Origin: Dehalococcoidia bacterium
GTDB taxonomy: Bacteria; Chloroflexota; Dehalococcoidia; Lucifugimonadales; GCA-2712585
Length of the DNA stretch: 64,000 bases
Direction of reading: 5' to 3'
Assembly (NCBI GenBank): GCA_965208725.1
Contig: CBDBPI010000002.1
Span: forward strand, 936,427-1,000,426
The stretch's first letter is position 1. Each line of letters starts with the position of its first letter. Shown piece by piece: positions 3,466 through 36,552 of the stretch. Position numbers and translations under genes: made by a program. The notes beneath the pieces were generated by a model. The model ran no database searches, was not told the origin of the DNA, and was given only the letters and a program-made list of their open reading frames with translations.

Positions 3466-3568
3466 GGCAGGCTTCGTCAGGGAATTACGGGTCAGGTTTG
3501 GGGTGAAACCCGGAGGGGAAGCCGGGATTCAAGCCCGGTGGTAATATGGCGTCAATTCGCGCAGTAGG

Positions 3569-3991
3569 TTGCGTCTGTTCAGGAGGAGTATCTTGATTGT
3601 TCTGATGGTGGCAACGGGAGGTCTAATCGGGGCGGTGCTGCGTTATCTGGCGGCAACTTGGGTGCAGGGCCCCGTGGGCGGCAACGGGTTCCCCTACGGG
3701 ACGCTTGCAGTGAACATTGTTGGATGTCTGGTGATTGGGGTTATTGCGGGATACGCAGAGGTGAGGCGACCCTTGAGCGCCGAGGCGCAGGCGTTTCTTG
3801 TTGTGGGGGTGCTGGGCGGGTTTACGACGTTTTCCGCCTTTGGGATTGACACCATCAACCTGCTGAGAGGAGGTGACTATCTGGCCGGAGCGGCGAATGT
3901 TGTCCTGCAGGTGACTTTCGGCCTGGTGGCGGTGGCGGTGGGCTTGAGACTGGCGCAGTGGAGCTTTGAGAAGCTGGCGGCGGGGCAATAG
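3569..3991 (+). CDS. crcB: Fluoride channel CrcB/FluC
   Basis: Small 4-TM protein with the GGFTTFSAF motif. The true start is probably ATG 3605 (MVATGGLIGA...). Confidence 0.85.
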   Translation: MRLFRRSILIVLMVATGGLIGAVLRYLAATWVQGPVGGNGFPYGTLAVNIVGCLVIGVIAGYAEVRRPLSAEAQAFLVVGVLGGFTTFSAFGIDTINLLRGGDYLAGAANVVLQVTFGLVAVAVGLRLAQWSFEKLAAGQ

Positions 3992-4088
3992 AGAAGTCCG
4001 TCAACGATCTTGACGTAAAAAGGGGAGAACCGCCTCCATCTGGCGGCGGGAAGGGGAAAGTTGGTTGTACAGTGCCGTCTACAGGCGG

Positions 4089-4349
4089 CTAGGAAGTTTT
4101 GGAGTCGATGAACTCAATCAACTGCCCGAGGTTCTTGAGCTCGGTGCACTGTTCCACGGCGAATTTGAAGCCGAATTCGTTCTGGAGTACGCGGGCGAAG
4201 GAGACCATATCCATAGAAGAAACGCCTTGTTCTCCAAGGCTGGAGCTCAGGGCCATGTTTGAGTCAACGGGCTTTCCGTCAACCTCGAGGTTTTCGCCAA
4301 TCAGTGTTCTAACTCTGGCTTCGGTGGATGCCATTTCATGTCTCTCCAA
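4089..4349 (-). CDS. Acyl/peptidyl carrier protein-like (phosphopantetheine-binding)
   Basis: 86-aa acidic protein. LGEQGVSSMDMVSFARVL matches the Ser-attachment helix of carrier proteins. Stands alone, convergent with crcB. Confidence 0.55.
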   Translation of the reverse strand: MERHEMASTEARVRTLIGENLEVDGKPVDSNMALSSSLGEQGVSSMDMVSFARVLQNEFGFKFAVEQCTELKNLGQLIEFIDSKTS

Positions 4350-4569
4350 GCAATTTCGGGATTTGTTTACTGTTAAGAGAATACCTAAATCGGCTTACTT
4401 CCGTCAATGCGACGGGGTCGCAAGTGAAAATGCTGATATTAGAGCGGCAGGGTCGCAAACAGGCAATCGGTAACCGGTGGCGTCCTGGTTGGGAGGGGTA
4501 GGTGGGTGGGGGAAGGCGGCGAGGTTATTAGCTGGGAATGGGACGCGGTTGGGTGAGAAGGGGGAGATG

Positions 4570-20908: not shown

Positions 20909-20986
20909 GGTCAGTCGTGAGGACCTTGTTGGAGTGTTCAATGCCCTTGTCTCATTATGAGTTAACCGATAAGTGGAGGTAAGCCG

Positions 20987-21187
20987 ATGACTACCGCTGA
21001 TGAAATCAAGCAGGCAGTCTTGAGTCTTCCAGAATCCGAATACGACAAGATCATGGACTGGCTTTACGCGTTGGCAGAGGATGCATGGGACCGACAGATC
21101 GAGGAGGATGTCCTAGCCGGCAAGCTGGACTTCCTGAAGGAGGAGGTCGAACGAGCCAAGCGGGAAGGCACACTTAGGGAGTTATAG
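20987..21187 (+). CDS. Putative antitoxin (addiction-module component)
   Basis: 66-aa acidic helical protein (LSLPESEYDKIMDWL) ending 1 nt before the toxin-like gene starts. Confidence 0.45.
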   Translation: MTTADEIKQAVLSLPESEYDKIMDWLYALAEDAWDRQIEEDVLAGKLDFLKEEVERAKREGTLREL

Positions 21188-21188
21188 T

Positions 21189-21443
21189 GTGCATCGCACT
21201 ACTCCCCAATTCTGGTCGCGCTTTGGACGGCTGCCTGAAGCAATTCAGAGGACCGCCCGGCGAAACTTCCAGTTGCTCAAGGATAGTCCCAGGCACCCGT
21301 CGCTTCATTTCAAGAAAGTCAACGAATACTGGGTGGTTCGAGTTGGCCGTTCCTACAGGGCTGTTGCCATCGAAGAAGGTCAAGACCTGTTCTGGGTCTG
21401 GATCGGTAGTCACGACGAGTACATGCGGGTTATTGGCCAATAG
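21189..21443 (+). CDS. RelE/ParE-superfamily toxin-like protein
   Basis: 84 aa. ...RHPSLHFKKV...VRVGRSYRAVAIEEGQDLFWVWIGSHDEYMRVI is the pattern of the ParE/RelE-like family. Confidence 0.55.
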   Translation: MHRTTPQFWSRFGRLPEAIQRTARRNFQLLKDSPRHPSLHFKKVNEYWVVRVGRSYRAVAIEEGQDLFWVWIGSHDEYMRVIGQ

Positions 21444-21485
21444 GCATCAAGGCTCAAATGAACTTTAGGTGCAAGGAGGGTTTCG

Positions 21486-21710
21486 ATGCCTCCAAGTGAA
21501 ATAGTTTTCCAAGTGTGGGATTCGCCTGATAGAGGATACGAGGCTCGCGCCGTTGGACACAGCATCTTTACCGAGGCTGATGACTGGGAGCATCTCAAGT
21601 TTATGCTGAGGGATGCGGTACAGTGCCACTTTGATGATGGTGAAGCTCCCCAGTCAATTAGAATCCACTTGGGACAAGCCGAGCTGGAAAGTACACTGGG
21701 AATCCTCTAA
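21486..21710 (+). CDS. HicB-like / UPF0150-fold small protein
   Basis: IVFQVWDSPDRGYEARAVGHSIFTEADDWEHLKFMLRDAVQCHF matches the small family often mislabelled as a 2-oxoisovalerate dehydrogenase subunit. No hicA lies next to it. Confidence 0.4.
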   Translation: MPPSEIVFQVWDSPDRGYEARAVGHSIFTEADDWEHLKFMLRDAVQCHFDDGEAPQSIRIHLGQAELESTLGIL

Positions 21711-22753
21711 TGACGAATAGCTTAGATTTGTCCAGCATCTTTAACGTGTACTCAATGCGTGAACGCCCGCCGAACAATGCAGGACAAAGCCTGCCCAGCG
21801 AGTTCAGGAACCGCGTCTGGCTTTTCTGCACGGAGATGGTTCATCCTTACGATCACTATTCGCGAACAGGCTACAAAATCGCTGACTTCTGGATGACCTT
21901 GCGGGACAAGCTCCGGTATAAACAAGGGCGTGTCCAACTCACGGATAGAGGGCAACCCACGGTTATCATGGAAGTTGAAGCGTTCCTTTTGAAATGCAGC
22001 GATGAAGACTATCTCGACTTTATCGAGATGTTCTTCCAATCCGAAGACCTACCGAAGTATTTCTCGGATAGTGAATTAAAGGAGGCCGTAGGCAACATCA
22101 ACAGGTTCTTCACCGAAGACGACCTGCCATACTCTCTCACTGAGTTCTCAATATCCAAATCGAAAACGCTGAAGCCGAGAATTAATAGACTGTTGTTTCA
22201 GTTGTTCGGAGGCTTTAGGTTTAGATGGTCAGAATCACCTTGGGTGAAGTCGTCCCACATGCAACCTAAATCCCATCCCATCAGGATTCCGACCATAGAG
22301 GCATATCCACAGATAATTCGTCGTGACAGCCAGCTACTACATCAGACTGCCATACAACCCGCTCTGGAGCTGCTATCAAATCCCGCTTTTCGTTCAGCTA
22401 ATTTGGAATTCCTTGGGGCTCTGTCCGACTTCAGAAATAAGGACTACGCGGACTGCGTGGTAAAGTGTGGAAGCGCCTTTGAAAGCGTGATGAAGGTGAT
22501 CTGCGACCAGAAAAAATGGCCATATAAGCAAACCGATACGACTGAGCCATTGCTCAATGCGATCTTTCAACGGGCAGGCTTAGAGCCGTTTTTCAAGCAG
22601 CCCATCATGTTGGTTGCGACTATCAGGAACAGACTAAGCAGCGCACACGGGTCCGGCGCTAAATCTCGGGTCGTGCCCAAACACGTTGCAAATTATTCCA
22701 TCAATGCGACCGCGTCCGCAATTTTGCTTTTGGTAGAAGAGACAAATCCTTGA
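21710..22753 (+). CDS. AbiJ-N / Abi_C-like abortive-infection protein (HEPN-type C-terminus)
   Basis: N-terminus has LPSEFRNRVWLF, as in AbiJ N-terminal domains. C-terminus has IRNRLSSAHGSG (Rx4-6H) followed by VANYSINATASAILLLVE, as in Abi_C. Confidence 0.5.
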   Translation: MTNSLDLSSIFNVYSMRERPPNNAGQSLPSEFRNRVWLFCTEMVHPYDHYSRTGYKIADFWMTLRDKLRYKQGRVQLTDRGQPTVIMEVEAFLLKCSDEDYLDFIEMFFQSEDLPKYFSDSELKEAVGNINRFFTEDDLPYSLTEFSISKSKTLKPRINRLLFQLFGGFRFRWSESPWVKSSHMQPKSHPIRIPTIEAYPQIIRRDSQLLHQTAIQPALELLSNPAFRSANLEFLGALSDFRNKDYADCVVKCGSAFESVMKVICDQKKWPYKQTDTTEPLLNAIFQRAGLEPFFKQPIMLVATIRNRLSSAHGSGAKSRVVPKHVANYSINATASAILLLVEETNP

Positions 22754-24267
22754 TGCATAACGAATTCAAGCTGCCTTCAGGTTGGGCAACAGCCGACCTT
22801 GGAGCCGTAACGCAGCCTCGCGGCCTGAAGAGGAAACCTGCCGAGGTTGGCGACGCTCCTTTCATTGGCCTTGAGAGTATAGAATCCCACACAATGCGTT
22901 TGTTAAATGTCAAGAGAACGGGAGATGTAAAAAGTGCTGGTTCTTATTTCGAGAATGCGGATGTCTTGTATAGCAGACTCCGTCCCTATTTGAACAAGGT
23001 CTATATGCCAGACTTCTATGGTTTGGTATCGGGTGAGTTCATCGTATTCCCGAAACAAGACTCTCTGGACAACGCTTATCTAAAATACTTCCTAAATCGA
23101 GTCGAATTTGCCTCGCACGCAACCAGGCTTAACGCAGGAGATAGACCACGTGTAGACTTCAGTCAACTGGCTGACTACCCCTTTCCCCTCCCTCCCCTCG
23201 CCGAGCAGCACCGGATTGTGGCGGAGATTGAAAGGCACTTAACCCGCCTTGATGCCTCCGTTGCTGCGCTAAAGCGGGTCCAGGGCAACTTGAAGCGCTA
23301 CCGGGCCAGCGTCCTCAAGGACGCCTGCGAAGGCAAACTGGTCCCCACTGAGTCAGATCTTGCCCACGCCGAGGGCCGCGACTACGAACCCGCTGACCGT
23401 CTCTTAGAACGCATCCTGTCCGAACGCCGCGCCCACAGGATGGCTAGGAAGAATCGCCGGGTCAAGCACAAGGAGCCTGTTGCACCGGATACCTCCACCC
23501 TGCCAGGACTTCCTGAGGGCTGGGTATGGAGCAAAGTCGGGCAGAGCTTTGATGTTTACGTTGGGTCTACACCAAAAAGAGCAAGGCCAGACTTTTGGAA
23601 CGGGGACATCCCTTGGGTTAGCAGTGGTGAAGTGTCAAATGGCAGAATCAAGTCAACACGAGAGAGCATAACCCAAGAGGGTTTCGAGAATAGCAGCGTC
23701 AATCTTCATCCAGTAGGCACCGTACTATTGGGCATGATCGGTGAGGGGAAAACACGAGGGCAAGTATCCATATTGGATATACCCGCCTGCAATAATCAAA
23801 ACTCCGCGGCGATCAGGGTCTCTGAGTCTGGATTGCCACCTGAGTATGTCTTTTACTACCTCTGGGGCCAATATGATGCCACACGGCGAGTGGGATCCGG
23901 CAATAATCAACCCGCACTTAACAAAACACGTGTACAAGAGTTGTTGCTACCACTCCCACCCCTAGCCGAGCAACGCCGCATTGTTGCTGAGGTGGAGCGT
24001 CGCCTCTCTGTAATCCAGCAAACCGAGGCAGCGGTCGAAGCCAACCTGACCAGAGCCGAGCGTCTGCGTCAGAGCATCCTGAAGCAAGCGTTTGCGGGAA
24101 ATCTCGTGCCCCAGGATCCCAACGACGAACCGGCGTCGGTCCTGCTGGAGCGTATCCGCGCCGAGCGAGAGGCGGCTCAAGCCAAAGCCAAGCTCAATCG
24201 GAAGCCGCGTCGTCGAACCGGCAAGTCGAGGAAGCGCCAGCCTGTTCCAAAGGGAGCAACTCCATGA
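22750..24267 (+). CDS. hsdS: Type I R-M specificity subunit, two TRDs
   Basis: Two target-recognition halves, each followed by the conserved LPLPPLAEQ(H/R)RIVAE(I/V)ER helix. Overlaps its neighbours by 4 nt. Confidence 0.9.
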   Translation: MMHNEFKLPSGWATADLGAVTQPRGLKRKPAEVGDAPFIGLESIESHTMRLLNVKRTGDVKSAGSYFENADVLYSRLRPYLNKVYMPDFYGLVSGEFIVFPKQDSLDNAYLKYFLNRVEFASHATRLNAGDRPRVDFSQLADYPFPLPPLAEQHRIVAEIERHLTRLDASVAALKRVQGNLKRYRASVLKDACEGKLVPTESDLAHAEGRDYEPADRLLERILSERRAHRMARKNRRVKHKEPVAPDTSTLPGLPEGWVWSKVGQSFDVYVGSTPKRARPDFWNGDIPWVSSGEVSNGRIKSTRESITQEGFENSSVNLHPVGTVLLGMIGEGKTRGQVSILDIPACNNQNSAAIRVSESGLPPEYVFYYLWGQYDATRRVGSGNNQPALNKTRVQELLLPLPPLAEQRRIVAEVERRLSVIQQTEAAVEANLTRAERLRQSILKQAFAGNLVPQDPNDEPASVLLERIRAEREAAQAKAKLNRKPRRRTGKSRKRQPVPKGATP

Positions 24268-25757
24268 GCACATCCACCTCCATTGGGCAGAAGCTCTGGA
24301 ACTACTGCAACGTGCTCCGGGACGCGGGGCTGTCCTACGGCGACCACTTAGAGCAGTTGACCTTCCTCCTGTTCCTCAAGATGATGCACGAACGCAGCCA
24401 GCCACCGTATACGCTGCTGCCCAACTACCAGCCCCCGCCGATTCCCGACGGCTACGACTGGCCCAGCCTGCTGGCCCGTGACGGCGACGAGTTGGAGACC
24501 CACTATCGCCGCACCCTGGAAACCCTTGCTCGACAGCCTGGCACCCTGGGCGTCATCTTCAACAGGGCCAGGAACGAAATCCAGGAACCGGCCATGCTGA
24601 CGCGCCTGGTTAAGGACCTCATTGACAGCGAGACCTGGCTTAGGCTCAGCGCGGACGTGAAGGGGGAGGCTTACGAGTCCCTGCTTGAGCGGAATGCCCA
24701 GGACGTGAAGACCGGCGCAGGGCAATACTTCACTCCAAGGCCGCTGATCCAGGCCATCGTAGACGTGATGCGCCCGGTGCCGGACACGACCATCTGCGAC
24801 CCCGCCTGCGGCACCGGCGGCTTCTTCTTGGCCGCCCATGACTACATCGTCCGCAACAACCCAAGCATGAACCAAGGCCAGCTGGACCACCTTCAGAACG
24901 GGGCGCTCTTCGGCTGGGATAACGTGGTAAAGGCTGCCCGGCTCTGCGTCATGAACCTGTACCTGCACGGGATTGGGGGAGATGAAACCAATATCGTCGT
25001 CGATGACAGCCTGCGCACCCATCCTGGGGTCAACTTCGATATGGTTCTCACCAACCCGCCCTTCGGTAGGAAATCTAGCCTGACCTTCGTAGGCTCAGAT
25101 GGCGAGGCCGTACACGAGAGCCTGGTGGTGGAGCGTCCCGACTTCTGGGCCACCTCCAGCAACAAGCAGTTGAATTTTCTCCAACACGTGCGGTCCCTGC
25201 TGGAGATTCATGGGCGGGCGGCCATCGTGGTGCCGGACAATGTCCTGTTTGAGGGAGGTGCTGGGGAGACGGTGCGGCGTCACCTGTTGGCCGAGTGCGA
25301 CGTTCATACGCTTCTGCGTCTCCCCACAAAAATATTCTACGCTCAGAGTGTGAAAGCCAACGTGCTGTTCTTCGACCGCAAACCAGCCAGGGAGTCGCCT
25401 TGGACCAGCGACCTGTGGGTCTACGACCTTCGAACCAACCGGCGCTTCACGCTCAAGAACAATCCACTCTCCCGCGTCGACCTGGATGACTTCGTGTCCT
25501 GCTACAAGCCGGAAGCTCGCCACCAGCGCCAGGAAACCGAGCGTTTCAAACGATTCAGTTACGACGACCTTTTGAAGAGAGACAAGGTGAATCTCGACAT
25601 CTTGTGGATCCGCGACGAAAGCATGGAGGACACGGCCAACCTGCCGCCGCCGGACCAGATCGCCGAGGAGATTGTCGAAGACCTCCGCGACGCCCTGGAG
25701 CAGCTGGAGGAGATTTCGGCAGACCTGTCGCCGGAAACTGCCTCTGCCGCCGACTGA
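24264..25757 (+). CDS. hsdM: Type I R-M methyltransferase subunit (N6-adenine)
   Basis: HsdM_N start (LWNYCNVLRD), SAM motif DPACGTGGF, catalytic NPPFG. Confidence 0.9.
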   Translation: MSTSTSIGQKLWNYCNVLRDAGLSYGDHLEQLTFLLFLKMMHERSQPPYTLLPNYQPPPIPDGYDWPSLLARDGDELETHYRRTLETLARQPGTLGVIFNRARNEIQEPAMLTRLVKDLIDSETWLRLSADVKGEAYESLLERNAQDVKTGAGQYFTPRPLIQAIVDVMRPVPDTTICDPACGTGGFFLAAHDYIVRNNPSMNQGQLDHLQNGALFGWDNVVKAARLCVMNLYLHGIGGDETNIVVDDSLRTHPGVNFDMVLTNPPFGRKSSLTFVGSDGEAVHESLVVERPDFWATSSNKQLNFLQHVRSLLEIHGRAAIVVPDNVLFEGGAGETVRRHLLAECDVHTLLRLPTKIFYAQSVKANVLFFDRKPARESPWTSDLWVYDLRTNRRFTLKNNPLSRVDLDDFVSCYKPEARHQRQETERFKRFSYDDLLKRDKVNLDILWIRDESMEDTANLPPPDQIAEEIVEDLRDALEQLEEISADLSPETASAAD

Positions 25758-26840
25758 GAAACCAATTCCACCGTTCGCCCTTTCCCAATCTCTCAACTGT
25801 TGATCCCAATCTGCGGTTCAGTTCATCCTCTCTGACGCCTTAATCCAATAGGGTCAAACATGCTTCGCACCGCTCACCTGGGAATTGGCAGACTCCTTCC
25901 ATCACGAACTTGCACTAATGCCATTCACGAGCTGAGAATTGGCACTAAAATTGCCCCCGCGCCTTGACAAAAAGTGCTTGCAGGAACCGCACACAATTGC
26001 AGTTATTCCCGCCTGATTAGCCTTGCTCACGACCCAAATTGCACTTTGGCAACAAGTTCCATTTCCTGTTCTACCTCCGCACGCGGCGCCATGTGCCATG
26101 AAGACCTTACATCAGAGTACAGAGGTGACCACTGTCACCATCGTCTTGACGAATTGACGTCAACCGCCTTTGCGCGACGCTTATTGAATGTCTAGGTGGA
26201 CCCCGCAGGCCCGACTATTTCCTTTCCGCTGCTACAAACCGGCCCAGCGCCTGGTGGAGAGCCAAGAATCGACGGCCAACCCCTGAAACGGGCTCTCAAA
26301 ATGCCTCCCAGCGGCCATTTTCCGAGTTGCTCTACCCGTTCAACCATTGCACTCCGAATAGAGAAGTTTCGTGCCTGGAGTAGGAACTCTATCCCTACAA
26401 TCGCCATTTCCGTTTTTACAACTTTCGTGCCTGCGACTGGAAGGTCTCTCCGCCGCAGACCGTTTACACAAAGTGTTGCCTGAAATAGGCCTCGCATGGC
26501 TCCAGGCTCGGCTGATTTAGCTACGAAACGGCATCCGTTTGGAAAGACATTTCTACATCCACAAAACCACTTTTACTGTACTACATCCCCTCATGGCAGA
26601 CACGCCTCCGCCATGGAGACCTTAAAAGGGGGGCGTGCGTGCCCCCTCCCAGAGGCGTCCCGGTAGAACATCCACAGACCCAACCGTCGACCCGGACCGC
26701 GTCGCGCCCTATACCACAAATTGAGTTCTAAAACAATGGCTTATAAGGCCTTATGTTTCGCCAATTTCTTGTTCATAATTTGGTCTAGAGCCTCCCGAAT
26801 CAACGCCTACATGGCTCATCAGAAGGGGAAGGAAACCCGG

Positions 26841-28499
26841 ATGAACCGAGACACACGAACACTGAAATACCTGGCCTCGATGCCTTACCTGGACCGGCTG
26901 GAACTGGCCGCCGTCTCCGACGTGCCGGACAGGACCATGCATGACGTAGTTGCGGGTCTGAAATCGAAGGGCCTTGTCTCATGGGTCCGACACTCCACGG
27001 AATACATAGCCTCAACACGACGGCTCTACGTTACGAGGAAAGGTCTCCAAACTTTGTCAGACCAGCTAGAAGTGGACCTGCTTGATCTTATCCAGTTCTT
27101 TCCGGTCTCCCGCCACTGGCAGCGCAACCTTCTGGCTCGACTGGATGCTATAGGAGTCATATACCGGCTGGCCACGTCGGTCGCTATTCTGGCAGGCGCA
27201 ATTGATTTCAGATGGTACCGCAGGTCACCCCTGGACGCCGGCATCATGCTCGGCGACGGGCGCGCTATCGGCGTGTTGAGGCAGGGTGCCACCACGGACA
27301 AGACGGGCTTCTCCAAGAGGATCTGGCGGCTGCTGGACAGCGACATAAAGGCCCTTACCGCCCTGCTGGTGATAGTGCCGGACGAGATGCGTATGCGTCA
27401 CACCCGGCGGCTTCTCAGAAACACCTTAGTGCCGGTATTCCTGGCCCTAGAAAAGCAGGTCGCCCAGAACATGGCGGGCCAGCATATATGGCGCATACCC
27501 TCCGCCAGCGTAGAGATAGACCTGGAATTTATCATGAAGAACCTGAACTCGAAGGGGATTCTTCCCGAGGAACAACCTCTCACGAGGTCCCTCATGCCCA
27601 AGGAGATCGAGGAGCTTGACGGAGACCTCAGGGTTGCGGAACACCTGCTGCCCGCCGCGCTGAAGCCAGGAATGAAGCGAACCATGGATATGCTGGCCGA
27701 TTGGCCTTGGGTCACTCACAAGGACCTCAGCGGCCTGCTGGGCGTAACCGCTCAGAGAACCTCCCAGTTGACGATTCCCCTGGTAAAAAGCCAGCTGGCC
27801 TGCCGGATCTACATGCAAGGTAGGGAACGATTGGCCCTTAGTGAGTGGGGCTGGGCCGTCCTGGCCCGTCGCGACCGTACATCCGTGGGCAGATTGAGAA
27901 GCCAGTGGGATGTGGAAACCGTCGATGGCAAGGATCCGAAGACGTGGAGGGAAGTCTTTGGGAGGCGGAGCAGGCTGCTGGCCCGCAACTTGGAGCATAC
28001 TCAATCAGTTCACGGCTTCCTTGCCAAGCTGTCGAGGCAGGCCAAGGACCGCAACTTCAGCATCAACTTGCTGGAGCCGCCTCACAAGGCCACCCGGGAC
28101 TTCAAGCACAACTACAAGACGCGGTCAATTCATCCCGACGCCTTTGGGATGCTGAAGAAAGGAGATAAGCTACTACCCTTCTTTCTGGAGTGGGAGCGAA
28201 GGGCAGTGAGGCCTGGGACAATGGCGGACCGGCTTGCTCCTTACCTACGCTATTATTCGTCCCTAAACCCGATGGACGATCATGGTGCAACTCCCATGGT
28301 GCTTATCGTCTTCGACGACATGCTGGTAGAATCCAGGTTTCACAGCGTGGCCCGCAGGGAGATGGCCAGAACAGTGGTCAAGCTGCCGTTGTGGGTGTCC
28401 CACAAGGAAATGATCGAGAAGGAGGGTCCTCTAGGCAGAGCATGGCGGAACCCGGACTACCTGGAGTACACGGACGCCTTTGGGATGGCAGCTCGGTAG
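26841..28499 (+). CDS. Replication-relaxation (Replic_Relax)-like protein with duplicated winged-helix modules
   Basis: Two wHTH-like segments (LKYLASMPYLDRLELAAVS..., MDMLADWPWVTHKDLSGLLGV...). C-terminal IHPDAFGML...FFLEWERRAV...LAPYLRYY resembles the PDa...lEvDrgte...Y core. Start uncertain (26721/26811/26841). Confidence 0.5.
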   Translation: MNRDTRTLKYLASMPYLDRLELAAVSDVPDRTMHDVVAGLKSKGLVSWVRHSTEYIASTRRLYVTRKGLQTLSDQLEVDLLDLIQFFPVSRHWQRNLLARLDAIGVIYRLATSVAILAGAIDFRWYRRSPLDAGIMLGDGRAIGVLRQGATTDKTGFSKRIWRLLDSDIKALTALLVIVPDEMRMRHTRRLLRNTLVPVFLALEKQVAQNMAGQHIWRIPSASVEIDLEFIMKNLNSKGILPEEQPLTRSLMPKEIEELDGDLRVAEHLLPAALKPGMKRTMDMLADWPWVTHKDLSGLLGVTAQRTSQLTIPLVKSQLACRIYMQGRERLALSEWGWAVLARRDRTSVGRLRSQWDVETVDGKDPKTWREVFGRRSRLLARNLEHTQSVHGFLAKLSRQAKDRNFSINLLEPPHKATRDFKHNYKTRSIHPDAFGMLKKGDKLLPFFLEWERRAVRPGTMADRLAPYLRYYSSLNPMDDHGATPMVLIVFDDMLVESRFHSVARREMARTVVKLPLWVSHKEMIEKEGPLGRAWRNPDYLEYTDAFGMAAR

Positions 28500-28639: not shown

Positions 28640-29129
28640 CTCATGTCGACGGCCCTGAATGTCAGTGTCTCATGCGACAGGAAGGACGTGCACCTTCCGT
28701 ATCCGCTCAGATGAGGGCGCTGTGAGACTCTTCCGACAACAACCGTTACTGGGCGGTCCCCGAGAATGCTTACGACGCTGAAAACGGACTAATCGCCAAC
28801 AGATCCAAGTTGCGCAAGAAGATAGATGAAGGCCGTCAGCCCAACGGTCCCTTTAGGGCGAGTTTGGTCGGGAAGCTCAACATGTTCACAAGTAGAAAGG
28901 AGCACGTGGTAGCCCACAAGTCCATGCTCTATCCCAAGGGCATCGAGGTCACGTCAATCACGGAGCACGCCGACGATACTCCCACTAGGAAGCTGAGGGA
29001 AGCCATAATCGAAAGCATTGATAAGTTCTGAACTGTGAACCTAGCCGAGAAGGTCCGGCGGGGACCTGAGAGAGGCGGCTTCAAAGGGGTTTACTGGACT
29101 ACTTCCCTGGCCCGTATGGCTGGAGAAGG
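28640..29129 (+). pseudogene. Serine recombinase (resolvase-domain) remnant, multiple frame breaks
   Basis: ...KGIEVTSITEHADDTPTRKLREAIIESIDKF, then a stop, then NLAEKVRRG... This is the end of a resolvase catalytic domain. Upstream frames show ...RIRSDEGA (the YxRVSxxxQ region) with stops. Confidence 0.45.
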
Positions 29130-29354
29130 GTGCTTGTGCAGGGCGGCATCGAAGCGTTTCTCCACCGGGAGTTGCTACCCTACGCTCCCGACGCTTGGTA
29201 CGTGCCTTCCAAGGTGAAGGTTGGCTACGAAATCAGCTTCACCCGGCACTTCTACAAACCCCAGCCATTGCGTCCGTTAGAGGAGATACGCTCTGATATA
29301 CTGGGGTTGAAGCGGAAGACGGAAGGGTTGTTGGCGGAGATTGTGGGAGGCTAA
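29130..29354 (+). pseudogene. 3'-terminal fragment of a second hsdM
   Basis: FLHRELLPYAPDAWYVPSKVKVGYEISFTRHFYKPQPLRPLEEIRSDILGL is the conserved extreme C-terminus of type I M subunits. No catalytic part lies upstream. Confidence 0.6.
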
Positions 29355-29360
29355 ATTAAC

Positions 29361-29750
29361 GTGGCTACTCTGAACATTTTCGTGAGCTTCGAGTTCGACA
29401 AGGACAACGACCTCAAGAACAACTTCATTGAGCAGGCTAGAGAATATACGCAACATCGCATTCGCAACTTCTCGCTCAATGAGGCTTACCCGGATGAAGT
29501 TTGGAAAAACAAGGCAAGGGCAGCCATTAGTGAGTGCGACGTAGTCGTGGTGCTGATTGGTCAGGACACCCACAATGCTCAAGGCGTTATAGTAGAGACT
29601 GACATGGCCCGAAGCCTGAACAAGCCTGTTATCCAAGTCAGGCCCCAGGGCAGGCCGTACAATGGGCTAACCCGCCTGGAAGAACCGATCCCATGGAAAT
29701 GGAAAAGGATAAGAGCCGAGTTGGATGTTATTGCAAAAAGAGGGAGATAA
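29361..29750 (+). CDS. Small TIR/MTH538-like protein (129 aa)
   Basis: NIFVSFEFDKDNDL start, CDVVVVLIGQDTH, GVIVETDMA Glu. Flavodoxin-like alternation typical of TIR-like domains. Confidence 0.55.
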   Translation: MATLNIFVSFEFDKDNDLKNNFIEQAREYTQHRIRNFSLNEAYPDEVWKNKARAAISECDVVVVLIGQDTHNAQGVIVETDMARSLNKPVIQVRPQGRPYNGLTRLEEPIPWKWKRIRAELDVIAKRGR

Positions 29751-29790
29751 ATATCCCTGTAGACTGCTGAGTAGGGGGCAGAGAAAACAA

Positions 29791-30222
29791 ATGCCAAAAC
29801 TGGACCACGAATCATCTGCCGTGCGAGCGCACATTGAGATGATGCAGGGCGTGATTACGCGAATGGCGGAGAACAGCCGCTCCTGCAAACTTTGGTGCGT
29901 CACCCTAGTCGCTGCAATCCTGGTATTGGTGGCACGCACTGGCGAACCGCGGCATGTGTTGATAGCCTTGGTTCCGACCCTGCTGTTCCTGTTTCTGGAC
30001 TCCTACTATCTGGCACTGGAAAGGGCCTTCATCAAGTCGCAGAACGCATTCGTGGCCAAGCTGCACGACAACGAACTGAAAAAATCCGAGGTCTACAAGG
30101 TTGTTCCGACAGGTATGAACTGGCGTCTTGTCGTCCGATGTCTCTGGGGATCAATTTCCATTTTGCCGTTTTATGTTCCGGTAGCCGCTACCGTCTTTGT
30201 GGCTTGGTGCTGGGTACTGTAG
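29791..30222 (+). CDS. Membrane protein, 3 predicted TM segments (143 aa), no known domain recognised
   Basis: Amphipathic N-terminal helix, then WCVTLVAAILVLVA, VLIALVPTLLFLFLDSYYLAL and ISILPFYVPVAATVFVAWCWVL. An alternative start at 29725 overlaps the upstream gene. Confidence 0.55.
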   Translation: MPKLDHESSAVRAHIEMMQGVITRMAENSRSCKLWCVTLVAAILVLVARTGEPRHVLIALVPTLLFLFLDSYYLALERAFIKSQNAFVAKLHDNELKKSEVYKVVPTGMNWRLVVRCLWGSISILPFYVPVAATVFVAWCWVL

Positions 30223-30236
30223 GCGGAGCGGCAGTA

Positions 30237-30800
30237 ATGGCGAAGAAGACTCCCAGACATAGAGTGTTTATCAGCTTCCACGAGAAGGACATTGAGTACA
30301 AGAAAAAGTTTGTCCAAATGATGGGGAAGCGTATCGTTGATAGGTCCGTTGACACCGGGAACATAGATGATACTGGCCTGAAAACGGCTACGGTGCGTCA
30401 GAAGATTCGGGATGACTACATTCGCGACGCAAGCGTTACCATTGTCCTCATAGGTCCTCGCACATGGCAGAGAAAGCATGTGGACTGGGAGCTTGGTTCC
30501 AGCATTAGAAGAACCAAGAAGAATTCCAGGTGTGGACTGGTGGGAATTCTATTGCCGCATCACCCCAACTACGGCAAGAAGCGCAATCCACGCCTGATAC
30601 CTCCGAGGCTGGCCGACAATTGCAAAGGAGAAGACCCATACGCGCTCATCCACGATTGGCCGAAGCCTTGGGCGCCCGCAAAGGTGGCCAGATGGATACA
30701 TCGTGCGTTTGTACGCAGAGATGGGACACCACCGACCAACTCACGAAAGCCGTTTGGGCGCAATAGGACCAGGGATTACAGGAAGGGTTGGCAGCAATAG
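30237..30800 (+). CDS. TIR-like (DUF1863 / ThsB-like) protein
   Basis: RVFISFHEKD, SVTIVLIGPRTWQRKHVDWELGS, LIPPRLADN. Clear paralogue of 9962..10645. The longer track ORF (29892..) is an out-of-frame overlap with the TM gene. Confidence 0.7.
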   Translation: MAKKTPRHRVFISFHEKDIEYKKKFVQMMGKRIVDRSVDTGNIDDTGLKTATVRQKIRDDYIRDASVTIVLIGPRTWQRKHVDWELGSSIRRTKKNSRCGLVGILLPHHPNYGKKRNPRLIPPRLADNCKGEDPYALIHDWPKPWAPAKVARWIHRAFVRRDGTPPTNSRKPFGRNRTRDYRKGWQQ

Positions 30801-30887
30801 GGCAGTTGCAGATTCCTCTTTGCTTTGGGATTAGATGCGTGCCGACATCCAGGCCCGTTGGCGTCTATGCGAAAGGGTGTAATCGAA

Positions 30888-31868
30888 ATGGGAAATGAGT
30901 CGATTCATAACATATCTCAGTCACTACGAGATATCGTGTTTAATCCTTTGACGGAGCATCTATTTCGAAAGAGTTCCCATATCAGTTACCAAGTCGTAAC
31001 TTGCCTTGATTCGATAGAGGATGCTCAGGTCGCAATTGACGGATATCGACAACTCGAACGTTCACAATTTCTTGCGCACAAGGGGAAAGTGTACCTTGTG
31101 GTTTATGGAGTGCTGCAAGGGATATTCCTCCAGCAGGACGCACTCAAAGACCTGGCAAATGCTCTTCACTTTCCGTTCCGAATTGGTGATTATCAGGACT
31201 TAAAGACAATTCGCGATATCAGGAATCAGATTGTTGGACATCCAACGAATTACAGTAGGGGCAAGAGCGAATCGTACTTCAGGATCAATAGAATTTCGTT
31301 GTCACTGGATGAGTTTGATGTTCTTGAATTCAACAGGTTGGATGGGCAGAGACAAATAGCATCAGTCAACATCACGCAGTTACTTATCGACAACGAGAAA
31401 CTAGTAGTAAAGGCAATGAAGGATCTAAGGAACAAGTTAGAAACAGATATAAGAAAGCATAAATCCCAGTTTCGCGGCAAACCTCTAGCTGATTGCATCG
31501 ATAAATCGCTTAGTTATATGTGTGAGAAAGTCAGGGCAGGTGCGTCAGCCTCTAATGACGAATTCGCCCGCCATTCAGCGGGTGCTGCCCTGAAAACCAT
31601 AGAGCACACATTGAGGGACCTATGCAAGGCCTTATGCGAACGAGGTAAACGTCCTAAAGACTGGGCTGGTGTGGACTTAATTTGGGACGAACTCCAATAT
31701 CCAATGAAGGCGCTACGAGCCTTCTATCTGAATGAAAGCAATGAAGCTCAGGTTCCTCAGCCGGAAGCCGTCAGAATCTTTGCGTTGTATTTGGATTCGA
31801 AATTGATAGAACTAAGAGAAATTTGCCGCGAAATAGACGGGTTTTACAGTAGCAATGAAACATCGTAG
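30888..31868 (+). CDS. HEPN-motif protein (~326 aa), Abi-like
   Basis: IRDIRNQIVGHPT carries an Rx4-6H motif in an all-helical protein. Start uncertain (30825/30867/30888). Confidence 0.5.
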   Translation: MGNESIHNISQSLRDIVFNPLTEHLFRKSSHISYQVVTCLDSIEDAQVAIDGYRQLERSQFLAHKGKVYLVVYGVLQGIFLQQDALKDLANALHFPFRIGDYQDLKTIRDIRNQIVGHPTNYSRGKSESYFRINRISLSLDEFDVLEFNRLDGQRQIASVNITQLLIDNEKLVVKAMKDLRNKLETDIRKHKSQFRGKPLADCIDKSLSYMCEKVRAGASASNDEFARHSAGAALKTIEHTLRDLCKALCERGKRPKDWAGVDLIWDELQYPMKALRAFYLNESNEAQVPQPEAVRIFALYLDSKLIELREICREIDGFYSSNETS

Positions 31869-31873
31869 GCTGA

Positions 31874-32701
31874 GGCTCGAAATGCCTCCCCCTCCCCTCC
31901 TACCTCGCATACAAGCCCTCCGGCGTTTCCTGGCTGGGCGACGTGCCGGAGCATTGGGAGGTGAGGCGAATTGGGACGATTGCCAAGATCCTAAACGGCT
32001 CCACACCTTCAACCAGCAATCCCGACTATTGGGATGGCAACATTGTGTGGGTCACTCCTGACGATCTCGGCAAGTTGAGAGGCCGTTACATCTCTGGTAG
32101 TGCCCGCAAAATCACCGAGCAAGGATATAGAGCATGTAGGACCACATTGGCTGCGGCAGGTAGCATTGTAGTCTCGACACGGGCACCAATTGGACACCTT
32201 GGAATCCTTCTTTCGGACGGGTGCGTGAATCAAGGTTGCCGGATGCTGGTTCCGGATGGGGCAACAAATCCGGAGTACCTGTACTACGCTCTGAGCACTA
32301 CATCCTCAAGCCTTGCTTCATTTGGGCAAGGCAGCACCTTCACCGACTTGTCACGCACGCTTTTGGCTGCCTTTCGCCTCCCTCTCCCTCCCCTCGCGGA
32401 GCAGTTAGCCATTGTGGAGTTTCTGGAAAAAGCAACCTCTGACTTAGATGCCGCCATTGCCCGTGCCGGGCGGCAGGTTGAGCTGCTGCAAGAGCATCGA
32501 ATCCGCCTCATCGCCGACGTGGTCCCCGGCAAGCTGGACTTAGGCGAAGCGGCGTTAGAAATGCCGGAGGAACCCGCAAGGGAAGCCTCTATGGACACCA
32601 ATGGGCCGATGGCGGACAATGAAAGGGCAGGTTTGAAACCCGTCCCAACGTCAACGGCGTATGTCTGGTACGACAGCAACCGGCAACCGGAAGAGAGGTG
32701 A
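31874..32701 (+). pseudogene. Half-size hsdS (one TRD plus central conserved helix), no ATG, orphaned
   Basis: ...YKPSGVSWLGDVPEHWEV N-terminal conserved block, one TRD, then LPLPPLAEQLAIVEFLE...LLQEHRIRLIADVV. The tail is unrelated to a second TRD. Confidence 0.65.
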
Positions 32702-32705
32702 ACGC

Positions 32706-32990
32706 ATGACAGACTGGAGCAAGTGCCCGGCGGTAGAAGGCGTACCCGGCAGGGTGAGCGGCAACTGGGTCTTCAAGGACACTCGTCTACCGTTGTACGT
32801 TCTCTTTGAGAACCTTGCGGCGGGCGCGACCATCTACGATTTCATCGACTGGTTCGAGGGGGCGGATGAACCGGAAGTGAGGGCGGTGCTGGAGCACGTG
32901 GCCCAGGAACTCCGGGCCAAAGTCGCCCATGCGGATCCTGTTCCATCACGAGACACCCCGGCAGCTTTGGCGTCGGCTCTTTGGCCATGA
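32706..32990 (+). CDS. DUF433-like small protein (antitoxin-like)
   Basis: GRVSGNWVFKDTRLPLYVLFENLAAGATIYDFIDWF fits the DUF433 core (G.p.i.gTRipv..l...l..G.s..ei). Confidence 0.5.
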   Translation: MTDWSKCPAVEGVPGRVSGNWVFKDTRLPLYVLFENLAAGATIYDFIDWFEGADEPEVRAVLEHVAQELRAKVAHADPVPSRDTPAALASALWP

Positions 32991-33078
32991 AGTGGAAGAG
33001 ACTCTTATCTGCGATTCGCTAACCTTACGTTGCAACGCTTCAGGCAATGGCCTATGCTGTGAGGTACAACATCTGTGA
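32929..33078 (+). pseudogene. Possible truncated DUF5615 (Mut7-C/PIN-like) partner of DUF433
   Basis: 49-aa ORF MRILFHHETPRQLWRRLFGHEVEE... resembles the N-terminus of DUF5615 proteins and overlaps the DUF433 3' end. Too short to be functional. Confidence 0.3.
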
Positions 33079-33088
33079 GACTGTGAAC

Positions 33089-33505
33089 ATGAGAAACATA
33101 ACCGTATCCGTCGACGAGGAGACCCACCGGTTGGCCCGTATACGAGCGGCTGAACTGGATACGTCGGTATCGGCCCTGGTGCGGGAATACCTGCGGGAGC
33201 TGAGGAAGAAACCCATGACGGAGATTCCAACAGCGGACGACCAAGGGTCGCACGAAGACTATCTGCGAGGCTTGGACAATCTGTTTACTGATTGGGACGC
33301 GCATGGCGTTGGCTTACGCGGCTATGATCGTCTGACTCGTGAGGAAGTGCACGACCGACAGAGGGCAAGGCTGGAGATGCGTATGGCGATAGCCGAAGAG
33401 CGGAACGAGAACCTGGAGTCGGAGCTGGCCCGTTTGACCACATCCTTTGAAGAGGTAAATCACGAAGGTAAGGTAGCTGCCACAAAGGAAAAAGCGGAGG
33501 GATAA
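33089..33505 (+). CDS. Ribbon-helix-helix antitoxin (VapB-like)
   Basis: MRNITVSVDEETHRLARIRAAELDTSVSALVREYL is an RHH beta-strand plus two helices. Lies directly upstream of a PIN gene. Confidence 0.6.
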   Translation: MRNITVSVDEETHRLARIRAAELDTSVSALVREYLRELRKKPMTEIPTADDQGSHEDYLRGLDNLFTDWDAHGVGLRGYDRLTREEVHDRQRARLEMRMAIAEERNENLESELARLTTSFEEVNHEGKVAATKEKAEG

Positions 33506-33522: not shown

Positions 33523-33939
33523 GTGGACACCAACGTGCTGCTGTATGCGGCGCTAGCTTCTCAAGAGGACGCGGAGAAGCGAAGAAAGGCGCGGGAGGTT
33601 CTGAAGGCTCACGACCTGGCGTTGTCGGTGCAGGTCTTGCAGGAGTTCTACTGGCAGGCCACTCATCCTGCCCGTACAGGCCGATTGCCGCATGCTCAAG
33701 CGATGGCATTTCTCCGGCTGTTTAGACACAAGCCCGTTCAACCAATGACCCGCGAGGTCTTTGAATTGGCAGTCATTATCAGCGAACGGTATCGGATTAC
33801 CTACTGGGATGGCGCAATCCTTGCCGCCGCACACTCCCTAGGCTGCGATGCGGTGTACTCGGAGGACCTCAGCGTAGGACAGGACTATGACGGCCTCCAG
33901 GTAATCAATCCCTTTGTGGAAGAGTCGATAGCTCCGTGA
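33523..33939 (+). CDS. vapC: PIN-domain toxin
   Basis: VDTNVLLYA start, ...YWDGAILAAAHSLGCDAVYSEDL acidic residues typical of VapC. GTG start. Confidence 0.8.
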   Translation: MDTNVLLYAALASQEDAEKRRKAREVLKAHDLALSVQVLQEFYWQATHPARTGRLPHAQAMAFLRLFRHKPVQPMTREVFELAVIISERYRITYWDGAILAAAHSLGCDAVYSEDLSVGQDYDGLQVINPFVEESIAP

Positions 33940-34417
33940 CCACCGACACCACAGAACGCGGGCTGGAGACTCCTATTGCAATTGGATGATGGGGGTGAGG
34001 AGTTAGGGCCAAGACGTAGACGGTGTGCGGGAGCGTCCGGCGAATTACTCTATCGGCTAGGACCTCGGTGATTCGAAGGACTACGAATGGAAATTCTGCG
34101 TTGACCTGGACAAGCTGTCGGCTTTTCTCCACCACACCCAGCCGGTAGTTGCCGAGTCTTTGGACCTGGGTAACGACAGTCCAACGAGGCGGAGATTTCT
34201 GGCCCGGCTTCAGAGGGAGATCACCAAGTGCGGGACGATTGACGTCTTGCGCAATGGCATCAAGCACGGTCACCACCAATTCGATTCGATGCATGGCACG
34301 CCGTCACCGGGCAACCGGAAGGCTAGGGACCTGTACGAGAAGAACCGCTTCAGCGTCACCAGGCAGCTCCGCTACAGTCGGGACGAGACCCAGCTTGCGA
34401 TTGACCTGGGTCTGTAG
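33940..34417 (+). pseudogene. 5' fragment of a second hsdR (about the first 160 codons, frameshifted)
   Basis: TTDTTERGLE..., YEWKFCVDLDKLSAFLHHTQP... and FLARLQREITKCGTIDVLRNGIKHG...NRFSVTRQLRYSRDETQLAIDLGL lie in three frames. No helicase part follows. Confidence 0.6.
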
Positions 34418-35069: not shown

Positions 35070-36218
35070 TCAACCGAGTAGGTAATCTGCCCACTGCTGC
35101 ATCAGGGTGCGGCGCCGCTCAAACAGGTCGGTCCTGGCATAGGCTTGTTCGGTTGAGTTTCCCAACGTGTGGGCCAGGGCTGCTTCCGATACCGCCCACG
35201 GCGTATCCGTCTGCTCCAGTGTCCAGTTCTTGAAGCTGCTGCGAAACCCGTGGACCGTCGCGCGGTCCGCAAGGCCAACGGAGCGAAGGACCTTCATTAG
35301 AGTCATATCGGACAAGGGAGCCTTCTTCTTATTCAGTGATGGGAAGACCAGTCCCGATTCGTCGAGTAATGCGTATGCTTCAGCCAGAGCATAAGATGCT
35401 TGTGTGGAGAGAGGCACTCGATGCTCCACTCCTGATTTCATCCGTTCTCCAGGGATGCGCCAAACCAGATTCTTGAGATCAATCTCGTCCCAAGTGGCGC
35501 CTCTGGCTTCACCGGAGCGTGCGGCAGTCAGTACCAGGAATCTGAAGCAAAATTTGGAAGGCAAAGAGGCCTCGGACGCGTCAACGATTTGAAGTGCCTT
35601 ACCCACCTCCTGGTAGGGCAGGGACCTTAGATGTGCCTTCACCTTCGGCATGCGGGGCAACGCGCCGTCGATGGCTTCACCCGCTGGATTTGACTCTAGG
35701 AAGCCATGCGCCATTGCCCATCGGAACACGGTCCTCATCCTTTGACGCACGCGTCGGGCGGTCTCCGGCTTGGTAGTCCAAATAGGAGTGAGGACTTGAA
35801 GAACACCCCTGCGGTCAATGCGATTTATGGGAGTGGTGCCCAGCTTTGGCATGGCGTGGCGCTCGAGAGTCTTGATCCAACTGGAAATGTGATGGGCGTT
35901 TCGCCAACGAGGCTTATTCGCCTCGTGGACCACAATGGCGGCTTCTTTGAAAGTCGGAATTTTGGCCTTTCGCTTCTCGGCGACGGGATCTCGGCCCTCC
36001 GCAATGATTGCCCGGTTTTCTGACGCTTTTTTGCGAGCTTGGGCAAGACTAACGGATGGGAAACTTCCTAGCCCAATATCACGCCGTCGATCGGCAACAG
36101 TAATACGTTGGACCCAGGATTTCCGACCCGTTTTTGTAATGAAGAGGTGCAGACCCCCTCCATCGGAATACCGTCCAGGCTCTTTTAATGCCCTGACTCT
36201 GGTCGCCGATAATGCCAA
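35070..36218 (-). CDS. int: Tyrosine integrase, P4-like with DUF4102 arm-binding N-terminus
   Basis: LSATRVRALKEPGRYSDGGGLHLFITKTGRKSWVQR N-terminus. Catalytic R...HGFRSSF...Y (AYARTD) residues. Confidence 0.9.
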   Translation of the reverse strand: MALSATRVRALKEPGRYSDGGGLHLFITKTGRKSWVQRITVADRRRDIGLGSFPSVSLAQARKKASENRAIIAEGRDPVAEKRKAKIPTFKEAAIVVHEANKPRWRNAHHISSWIKTLERHAMPKLGTTPINRIDRRGVLQVLTPIWTTKPETARRVRQRMRTVFRWAMAHGFLESNPAGEAIDGALPRMPKVKAHLRSLPYQEVGKALQIVDASEASLPSKFCFRFLVLTAARSGEARGATWDEIDLKNLVWRIPGERMKSGVEHRVPLSTQASYALAEAYALLDESGLVFPSLNKKKAPLSDMTLMKVLRSVGLADRATVHGFRSSFKNWTLEQTDTPWAVSEAALAHTLGNSTEQAYARTDLFERRRTLMQQWADYLLG

Positions 36219-36380
36219 TTGAGACCTCCAAGAAGCCGTTTCGTTACCACATCTGTTACCACAATTGAGTTGGGATACCAGGGGAACGCTTTAGCATAAT
36301 TAGAACGCATTTTAACGCAATTTAGCTATAAAAGCAAGACTTTTTGGAACAAAAAGGGAAGGCAAAAGAAGGGTAAAAAA

Positions 36381-36396
36381 TGGAGCTGGGGGGACT
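36381..36396. repeat. attR-type direct repeat (inside the tRNA-Ala 3' end)
   Basis: Identical to 4570-4585. Confidence 0.75.
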
Positions 36397-36453
36397 CGAA
36401 CCCCCTACCTCTTCAATGCCATTGAAGCGCTCTCCCAGATGAGCTACAGCCCC
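36381..36453 (-). tRNA. tRNA-Ala (anticodon GGC)
   Basis: Hand-folded cloverleaf of 73 nt. GGGGCUG acceptor with the G3:U70 pair, anticodon loop AUGGCAU, T-loop GGGGGUUCGAGUCCCCC. CCA not encoded. Confidence 0.9.
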
Positions 36454-36552
36454 ACGAGGTTGTATATGATAGCACAGGATTGGGGATTCATCCCAGCGTG
36501 GGGCGTGAAGGGATGCTTGGAGAGGGGTAGTGCATGAGGATTGGAGGGAGGG

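Follow-up and report, generated by a model that had tools for sequence, protein, structure and literature searches.

Probable stacking of two independent defence cargo modules, one of them Thoeris-like, between hsdM and hsdS in the remains of a type I restriction operon of a Dehalococcoidia bacterium

Systems in which a TIR protein is paired with a small transmembrane (TM) effector have been published as Thoeris types V and VII and as a putative '3TM' type, and 29 putative Thoeris types are listed in the preprint concerned (Yirmiya et al., 2025; 10.64898/2025.12.03.692087). According to this preprint the type V effector ThsF (DUF2270) is a three-TM protein that has been modelled as a ring with positively charged pockets between the protomers. 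A further set of candidates, designated PDC ('phage defence candidate', with M for multi-gene), was defined by embedding in restriction-modification (RM), BREX or DISARM systems, an approach termed 'guilt-by-embedding' (Payne et al., 2024 preprint; 10.1101/2024.01.29.577857). Known examples of genes lying within type I RM operons are PrrC (PMC12707154) and TgvAB (PMC11411939), and the HEPN protein HEC-08 is embedded in Hma systems (10.1101/2024.01.29.577857). Here we describe a four-gene locus (G1-G4) at positions 29,361 to 31,868 of a 64,000-nucleotide (nt) stretch of DNA, referred to throughout as the window, from a Dehalococcoidia bacterium (assembly GCA_965208725.1, contig CBDBPI010000002.1, positions 936,427 to 1,000,426). 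The locus is probably best explained as two independent defence cargo modules, G1-G3 and G4, stacked at the hsdM/hsdS junction of a decayed type I RM operon, itself part of a tRNA-Ala integrative island. The components of the locus are as follows (aa, amino acids).

29361-29750, + strand: G1, short ThsB-type TIR protein of 129 aa; optional upstream TIR
29791-30222, + strand: G2, 143-aa membrane protein with three hydrophobic segments; conserved module core and presumed effector
30237-30800, + strand: G3, ThsB-type TIR protein of 187 aa; regular downstream partner of G2
30801-30887, + strand: G3-G4 spacer, possibly a degenerate hsdM 3'-end remnant marking a module boundary (weak nhmmer match)
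30888-31868, + strand: G4, 326-aa protein of an orphan family; separate single-gene cargo of type I RM operons

An earlier note, made from the letters of this DNA, had described four open reading frames (ORFs) separated by gaps of 40, 14 and 87 nt, the first starting 6 nt after a dead hsdM fragment. All of this was recovered as described, the fragment being a 74-aa ORF whose stop lies 6 nt before G1, as were the motifs NIFVSFEFDKD, VVVVLIG, VETDMA, RVFISFHEKD, TWQRKHVDWELGS and IRDIRNQIVGHPT in the ORF products. Full-length homologues of the same size exist for each product (127-129 aa for G1, 143-146 aa for G2, 187-203 aa for G3 and 323-327 aa for G4) and the ORFs can therefore be taken as genuine and not as chance occurrences; since the homologue lengths also agree with the chosen starts, the start codons can be regarded as settled. 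An alternative ATG for G2 at 29725 disagrees with the homologues, and the public call for G4 (P0121, 256 aa) misses a conserved stretch of 70 residues at the N-terminus, including R14, D41 and D45, that is kept by all homologues. The four genes are intact, with identities to relatives of 82-93% for G1-G3 and up to 75% for G4. A scan for promoters and terminators returned fewer sites than shuffled sequence and is hence uninformative.

The evidence for two modules comes from the company that the genes keep in other genomes. Among 80 G2 loci from species-representative genomes, nearly all of them Dehalococcoidia/Chloroflexota, a TIR gene lies downstream of G2 in 70, upstream in 42 and on both sides in 39, and G2 has hsdM upstream and hsdS downstream in 41. 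Four TIR types alternate around a constant G2: the downstream slot holds a TIR of either the G3 type or a type here called TIR3, and the upstream slot holds a TIR of the G1 type (~23 loci) or of a 164-aa type (~19 loci). G4 is present in only one of the 80. The 11 loci with a close G4 homologue (at least 41% identity) are the window, L018, L019, L022, L023, L024, L026 and L211-L214, where L numbers designate individual loci of the comparison sets. All 11 are type I RM operons or the remains of them; G4 lies upstream of hsdS in 10 and between hsdS and hsdR in L214, and it stands alone between hsdM and hsdS in L023, L024 and L213. A TIR module accompanies G4 only in the window, L018 and L212, the other eight loci being without one. 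Of the four-gene cassette envisaged in the earlier note, then, the part that recurs is the Thoeris-like G1-G3, with G2 and its downstream TIR as the regular pair, but the inclusion of G4 did not survive comparison across genomes. In other genomes the place after G3 is taken by unrelated genes, whose products are a Hypoth_Ymh protein, a DUF6602 protein, one carrying a nucleoside-deoxyribosyltransferase-like domain, or proteins that Pfam does not match. No relation was found between G4 and the other genes occupying the same slot in L001 and L004, nor between G4 and a Hypoth_Ymh protein (hhalign probability 0.2%).

The module boundaries, like the gene identities, conservation and co-occurrence, are matters of direct observation, and they are marked by repeated hsdM ends. 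A DNA profile built from the terminal ~170 nt of hsdM was run with nhmmer on 76 loci and on the window, where it matches at 29186-29358 (E 4e-49); an intact hsdM occupies the same position relative to G1 in L001, L018 and L043 as the fragment does in the window. Extra copies of the hsdM 3' end on the same strand were found in 19 of the 76 loci, each just upstream of a cargo module. They comprise the final 70-175 nt of hsdM, lie on the operon strand without exception and belong to Dehalococcoidia type I RM operons. Such a copy immediately precedes G4 in L018, L022, L026, L211 and L212, and wherever checked the hsdM 3' end or a copy of it directly precedes a G4 that lies upstream of hsdS. Copies in individual loci are located as follows.

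L018, 5894-5973, operon strand: hsdM-end copy between G3 and G4 (nhmmer E 2.7e-11)
L212, 4857-4986, operon strand: hsdM-end copy between G3 and G4 (nhmmer E 1e-16)
L002, 4590-4763, 5500-5570 and 7016-7098, operon strand: hsdM-end copies on both sides of G1-G3
L022, 3315-3487, 4166-4328 and 5829-5979, operon strand: hsdM-end copies
L026 and L085, operon strand: four hsdM-end copies each

The copies in L085 bound each of two G2+TIR modules. The spacer between G3 and G4 in the window holds a weak 27-nt match to the hsdM end (30829-30855, 4.7 bits, E 0.45 over the whole window), and because this match is weak the argument for a separate insertion of G4 is drawn from the sister loci L018 and L212. 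To judge from their sequence the copies look like products of recombination at the conserved 3' end of hsdM, by which cassettes became stacked, and G1-G3 would adjoin G4 because the two share an insertion hotspot and not because they form one system. A copy in L095 (5531-5694) lies between G2 and the downstream TIR gene, within a unit that in other loci has the look of a single module, and since it splits the two, the downstream TIR may be exchangeable on its own.

By profile and alignment, G1 and G3 are ThsB-type TIR proteins with the catalytic Glu, in keeping with the suggestion in the earlier note that both are TIR-like. Pfam ThsB_TIR (PF08937; cutoff 21.2 bits) matches G1 at 35.4 bits (E 1.5e-8, profile positions 1-98 of 100) and G3 at 59.6 bits. 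The residue aligned with the TIR catalytic Glu is E79 in G1, invariant in 25 of 25 relatives, and E85 in G3, invariant in 70 of 70. Set against the published Thoeris TIR sequences given in Table S1 of Yirmiya et al. (2025), G3 is 37-48% identical to TIRs of types VI and VIII, and G1, the most divergent of the four TIR types around G2, scores 29 bits against a profile of '3TM'-linked TIRs with the Glu aligned. In the same comparison the alternative upstream TIR of 164 aa is 46-50% identical to a type V TIR and 38-46% identical to a type XI TIR, and TIR3, the downstream alternative, reaches 37-67 bits with the '3TM'-linked profile. The best PADLOC match of G3 is to PDC-M50B (PDLC04688, E 9.3e-10), and G2 matches PDC-M50A (PDLC04686, E 2.5e-25, profile 5-128 of 134), with three further PDC-M50A models matching at 4e-14 to 9e-18. 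The two genes are adjacent and inside a type I RM operon and, on these profile matches, G1-G3 are a Thoeris-like member of the catalogued candidate PDC-M50, which disposes of the earlier view that the locus could be assigned to no named system. The PDC-M50 definition comprises two genes, whereas the window and about half of the Dehalococcoidia loci add an upstream TIR. A literature search found no paper naming PDC-M50.

As had been noted, G2 is small, contains three hydrophobic segments and lacks a ligand-binding domain recognisable by Pfam; in a Kyte-Doolittle scan with a 19-residue window the segments fall at ~34-52, 55-76 and 119-143. An AlphaFold2 (AF2) model (predicted local distance difference test score, pLDDT, 78) has helices at 9-50, 60-92, 111-120 and 125-142, that is, a long N-terminal helix running into TM1, TM2 with a juxtamembrane helix, a short helix and TM3. 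Invariant or near-invariant residues of the family are R24, K33, Q19, N28, S29, D70, Y73 and E77, and in the model the conserved polar residues map to two helices predicted to be cytoplasmic. The family is large, with 1253 matches in a 90%-identity database and 2911 clusters at 50% identity, and scans of Pfam and NCBIfam returned no match for G2. The earlier suggestion of a SLATT-like protein found no backing, there being no Pfam SLATT match and only one of 98 family members weakly matching SLATT_6 (E 0.0077).

Type V Thoeris, as described by Yirmiya et al. (2025), resembles the present module in setting a ThsB-type TIR beside a small three-TM effector without an enzymatic domain. Adjacency of a G2-family gene and a TIR gene, in either order, was found on plasmids of Vibrio chagasii, Klebsiella, Clostridium botulinum, Priestia megaterium, Pseudanabaena and Campylobacter jejuni, whose G2 relatives belong to five phyla other than Chloroflexota and score 86-218 bits against the family hidden Markov model; judged by coordinates, the pairing occurs in Terribacillus too. 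Among these partners are TIRs 39-67% identical to two verified type V ThsB proteins of the same preprint, that of P. megaterium being 67% identical to ThsB of Bacillus sp. 1NLA3E and those of Klebsiella, C. botulinum and Terribacillus 39-47% identical to ThsB of B. thuringiensis DAR 81934. A genuine DUF2270 protein was sought beside the type V-like TIRs on plasmids and no PF10028 match was found, the neighbours being SLOG, Macro, SIR2 or G2-family proteins. Weak DUF2270 matches occur in 12 of 98 G2-family representatives (best E 0.0012) and are the most frequent among the weak matches. Because of the TIR kinship with type V ThsB, a homology of G2 with ThsF, as compared through the PF10028 profile, is plausible. 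The module differs from type V in that G2 has no PF10028 match. As to the partner TIRs, those on the plasmids and the 164-aa upstream TIR show the type V kinship given above, and the G3 of the window is nearest to the type VI/VIII TIRs that the preprint provides.

A second point of comparison is the '3TM' effector of Yirmiya et al. (2025), which matches PF24838 (8xMP, 'octameric membrane protein') at 141-164 bits and adjoins its TIR in 58 of 80 sampled loci from many phyla (L123 2544-2993 and 57 among L124-L202). This effector is like G2 in having an N-terminal helix, two TM segments, a helix and a third TM segment in ~145 aa, with short TIRs adjacent, and the TIR3 of some G2 loci falls in the '3TM' TIR clade. 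There is nevertheless no profile-profile homology between the G2 family and PF24838 (hhalign probability ~1%); G2 has no PF24838 match, and only three of 98 family members match it weakly. Types II (TM-Macro) and VII (SLATT) would share with the module, by analogy, a TIR-made signal and a membrane-disrupting effector, but G2 has neither a Macro domain nor a SLATT match. A more general resemblance to Thoeris is that the effector slot, filled by G2, is constant and the TIR clade varies.

The reading that we favour can be put as a mechanism, in which signal production by the TIRs, the effector role of G2 and any activity of G4 are proposed by analogy. The ThsB-type TIRs G3 and G1 would sense infection and convert NAD+ to an ADP-ribose-derived signal. 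This signal would bind to G2 on its cytoplasmic side, where the amphipathic helix at the N-terminus and the helix that follows TM2 make up a conserved surface of positive charge; G2 would then oligomerise in the membrane and breach it, leading to abortive infection. The logic is that proposed for ThsF in type V Thoeris, and G1 may represent an optional extra sensor TIR of the kind found in Thoeris loci with several thsB genes. G4 may be an Abi-type, possibly HEPN-like, nuclease that guards the RM system, although this is the weaker part of the proposal.

G4 itself belongs to a family that has escaped annotation. Searches of Pfam, NCBIfam, PADLOC and PDB sequences gave no match to it. Close homologues number 28 and those reached with a profile 171, the few with a name being 'hypothetical protein' and none of the 171 carrying a Pfam domain. 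Scans of 23 family members against Pfam, including the HEPN clan, and a profile search of PDB with the family gave nothing relevant, and 20 diverse members had no match in PADLOC. Residues G74, L76, Q83, D84, R109, G117, H118 and D317 are invariant across the family, and in the close homologues the motif R-x2-R-N-x3-G-H-P-T is invariant and accompanied by a conserved acidic/polar cluster. The AF2 model (pLDDT 86) has an N-terminal helical domain, in which the motifs lie, a sheet of four strands and a helical bundle at the C-terminus. The likeness to PrrC/EcoprrI, the Rlo genes, TgvAB and HEC-08 lies in the fixed place inside type I RM operons and in the R...H motif; the difference is that none of them is related to G4 in sequence or fold. 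A G4 homologue of 41% identity in a Latescibacterota metagenome-assembled genome (L026, 7001-7969) lies among the four hsdM-end copies of that locus and has five in-frame stop codons, for which reason it is probably a pseudogene. Some of the distant relatives of G4 lie near RM genes, for example in L041 and L033.

Several observations weigh against the favoured reading. With regard to the TIR module, the four TIR profiles found no TIR gene beside G2 in seven of the 80 loci, the literature search found no experiment on PDC-M50 or on any G2-family member, and a Foldseek search of PDB gave no fold match for G2, in which no nucleotide-binding domain was recognised. The relation to DUF2270/ThsF is below threshold, G2 itself having no PF10028 match at E up to 1 and the family consensus matching that profile at E 0.18 and 11.8 bits, the cutoff being 25. 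As for G4, the Rx5H motif noticed earlier is indeed there (R112-x5-H118), but R112 is only ~90% conserved in the family, in which the strictly invariant pair is R109...H118 (Rx8H), and no HEPN family was matched. A Foldseek search of the model against PDB and BFVD gave no match at E up to 0.001 and no HEPN entry in the top 50, a negative that is not a firm exclusion given that Foldseek is weak on small helical bundles. Because a HEPN fold match is lacking, the HEPN identity of G4 is a suggestion at the level of a sequence motif. The distant relatives of G4 (23-32% identity) are spread over many phyla and are for the most part solitary and outside RM operons. Finally, G3 and G4 are neighbours in three genomes, and in those genomes the two may cooperate.

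The last of these points touches on the alternative in which G1-G4 are one system, with TIR-made signals activating two effectors, G2 and a HEPN RNase G4, essentially the signal producer and two-effector arrangement put forward in the earlier note. The four genes are co-directional and tightly spaced, the order G1-G2-G3-G4 recurs in L018 although the G4 there is only 56% identical, and G2-G3-G4 recurs in L212. Adjacency of the two modules is, however, expected without a functional link because both use one hotspot, and in L018 and L212 an hsdM 3'-end copy splits G3 from G4, marking separate insertions. G4 is missing from 79 of the 80 G2 loci and the TIR module from eight of the 11 G4 loci, and Pfam finds no SLOG, Macro, SAVED or CARF signal-binding domain in G4. 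A single system is on these grounds very improbable, and since G4 is separate by co-occurrence and by the hsdM-end boundaries, the module has a name and the HEPN assignment comes from a motif, the idea of a producer with two effectors finds no support. A reversal of roles, with G2 as a membrane-anchored sensor or scaffold and the TIRs killing by NAD+ depletion, would accord with the lack of a recognised ligand-binding domain in G2 and with the depletion of NAD+ by bacterial TIR domains in CBASS, Pycsar and pAgo contexts, for which the preprint of Yirmiya et al. (2025) is our source. We consider it quite unlikely: G3 and both alternative TIRs are nearest to the signal-producer TIR clades of the verified Thoeris types in that source, G1 and G3 are small stand-alone ThsB-type TIRs as in Thoeris, and the exchange of TIR clades beside a small membrane protein that stays the same is the sensor/effector pattern of Thoeris. 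It is also unlikely, if a little less so, that G1 is not a signal-making TIR at all but a regulator of the system, namely a nucleotide-binding or nucleotide-hydrolysing protein akin to nucleoside 2-deoxyribosyltransferase or SLOG, which might for instance degrade or buffer the signal. Sub-threshold matches of G1 to Nuc_deoxyrib_tr (26.5 bits, cutoff 28.8) and to STALD/SLOG (E 0.0011), its divergence from the other TIR types and its optional presence (~23 of 80 loci) are in agreement with such a role. The ThsB_TIR match is nonetheless stronger, above threshold and spans the whole profile, the Glu aligned with the TIR catalytic Glu is invariant in G1 relatives, and in other genomes the G1 slot is occupied by an ordinary ThsB-type TIR.

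A different question is what G4 does, and here the alternative is that it guards the RM system by the logic of PrrC, being kept silent by the type I RM complex until a phage inhibits restriction and then set free as a nuclease. The confinement of all 11 close-G4 loci to type I RM operons, 10 with the gene upstream of hsdS, argues for this, as do the invariant R-x2-R-N-x3-G-H-P-T motif with its acidic/polar cluster and the existence of RM-embedded genes known in such jobs, e.g. PrrC (PMC12707154), TgvAB (PMC11411939) and HEC-08. Against it, Pfam and NCBIfam scans found no ATPase family for G4, which lacks the P-loop/ABC-type ATPase domain of PrrC, and neither a HEPN family nor a HEPN fold was matched; distant relatives are solitary and beside housekeeping genes; and although G4 is intact in the window, its RM partner there is dead (truncated hsdM, hsdS and hsdR). 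On balance the guardian role is a serious possibility that falls short of being probable. More tentative again is an extension of it, in which G4 would be the first of an undescribed family of RM-embedded nucleases guarding the restriction complex, and the duplicated hsdM 3' ends in front of every cargo module would serve as the recombination substrate with which Dehalococcoidia stack and swap cassettes in the operon, an integron-like hotspot without an integrase.

The interest of the locus lies in the G2 family and its possible identity with ThsF, in the G4 family and in the hsdM-end repeats that flank cargo modules. The G2 family, with ~2,900 clusters at 50% identity, has no Pfam model and is almost always beside a TIR gene, and if it were confirmed as a Thoeris effector many unannotated TIR loci, including those on plasmids of clinical genera, could be assigned; such confirmation would also show whether ThsF, broadly defined, includes the G2 family. 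In G4 it is the placement more than the chemistry that is of interest: the family is an uncatalogued orphan with one fixed site in type I restriction operons and, taken with the hsdM 3'-end repeats, it gives a concrete starting point for understanding the assembly of defence genes within these operons. The current picture of bacterial immunity is left unchanged by these findings.

The operon that hosts the two modules is decayed, the four cargo genes being intact. Its remaining components and the end of the island are as follows.

29130-29354, + strand: hsdM 3'-terminal fragment, 74 aa, with the remainder of the gene absent; the upstream boundary of G1-G3 (PADLOC MTase_I 594-660 of 661, E 7e-22)
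31943-32701, + strand: half-size hsdS, 252 aa, with one target-recognition domain (Pfam Methylase_S, E 7e-24)
32661-32990, + strand: DUF433 gene (Pfam), passenger between hsdS and hsdR
33047-33505 and 33523-33939, + strand: RHH/PIN (VapBC-like) pair (Pfam), passengers between hsdS and hsdR
34160-34417, + strand: hsdR remnant, 85 aa, matching 77-161 of the 1011-aa HsdR of L018
34775-35047, + strand: AlpA regulator (Pfam Phage_AlpA)
35070-36218, - strand: tyrosine integrase (Pfam Phage_integrase, Arm-DNA-bind_3)
36380-36454, - strand: tRNA-Ala, end of the island (ARAGORN)

The hsdS product corresponds to positions 232-460 of a 479-aa HsdS. Its frame opens after the stop codon at 31871-31873 and offers no start before the GTG at 31943, and there is none upstream of the conserved N-terminal motif. 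The DUF433 and RHH/PIN genes are usual passengers at this place and are also present in L001, L002 and L018. Just upstream of the hsdM fragment lies a gene for a 592-aa protein with a weak Replic_Relax match (26721-28499), and a short ORF at 28810-29031, without a family match, looks by eye like a serine-recombinase remnant; the Replic_Relax-like protein and the recombinase-like ORF together suggest that a mobile element destroyed hsdM.

Other defence genes are found in the same surroundings, both in the window and elsewhere. The window contains a second, apparently intact type I RM system at 18104-25754, with an AbiJ-like gene (AbiJ_NTD4, DUF7014 and Abi_C) embedded in it and, beside it in the same island, a gene for a protein of 483 aa that combines an FRG domain at the N-terminus with multiple TPR repeats.

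16292-17740: FRG-TPR protein, 483 aa
18104-20905: hsdR of the second RM system (EcoEI type)
21710-22750: AbiJ-like gene
22750-24264: hsdS of the second RM system
24264-25754: hsdM of the second RM system

In 19 of the 80 G2 loci an AbiEi/AbiEii pair separates hsdM from the TIR module, the operon order there being hsdM-AbiEi-AbiEii-TIR-G2-TIR-hsdS-hsdR. Two G2+TIR modules, arranged in tandem or close to each other, occur in some genomes and plasmids.

L054-L056, L058, L060-L064, L067, L068, L086, L114, L121 and others, ~2900-4500 in each locus: AbiEi/AbiEii
L085, 2812-3845 and 4989-6022: double G2+TIR modules
L006, 11747-12166: double G2+TIR modules
L209, 4001-5613 and 7081-8212: double G2+TIR modules

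On plasmid p1 of Vibrio chagasii there are likewise two G2+TIR pairs, which are divergent.

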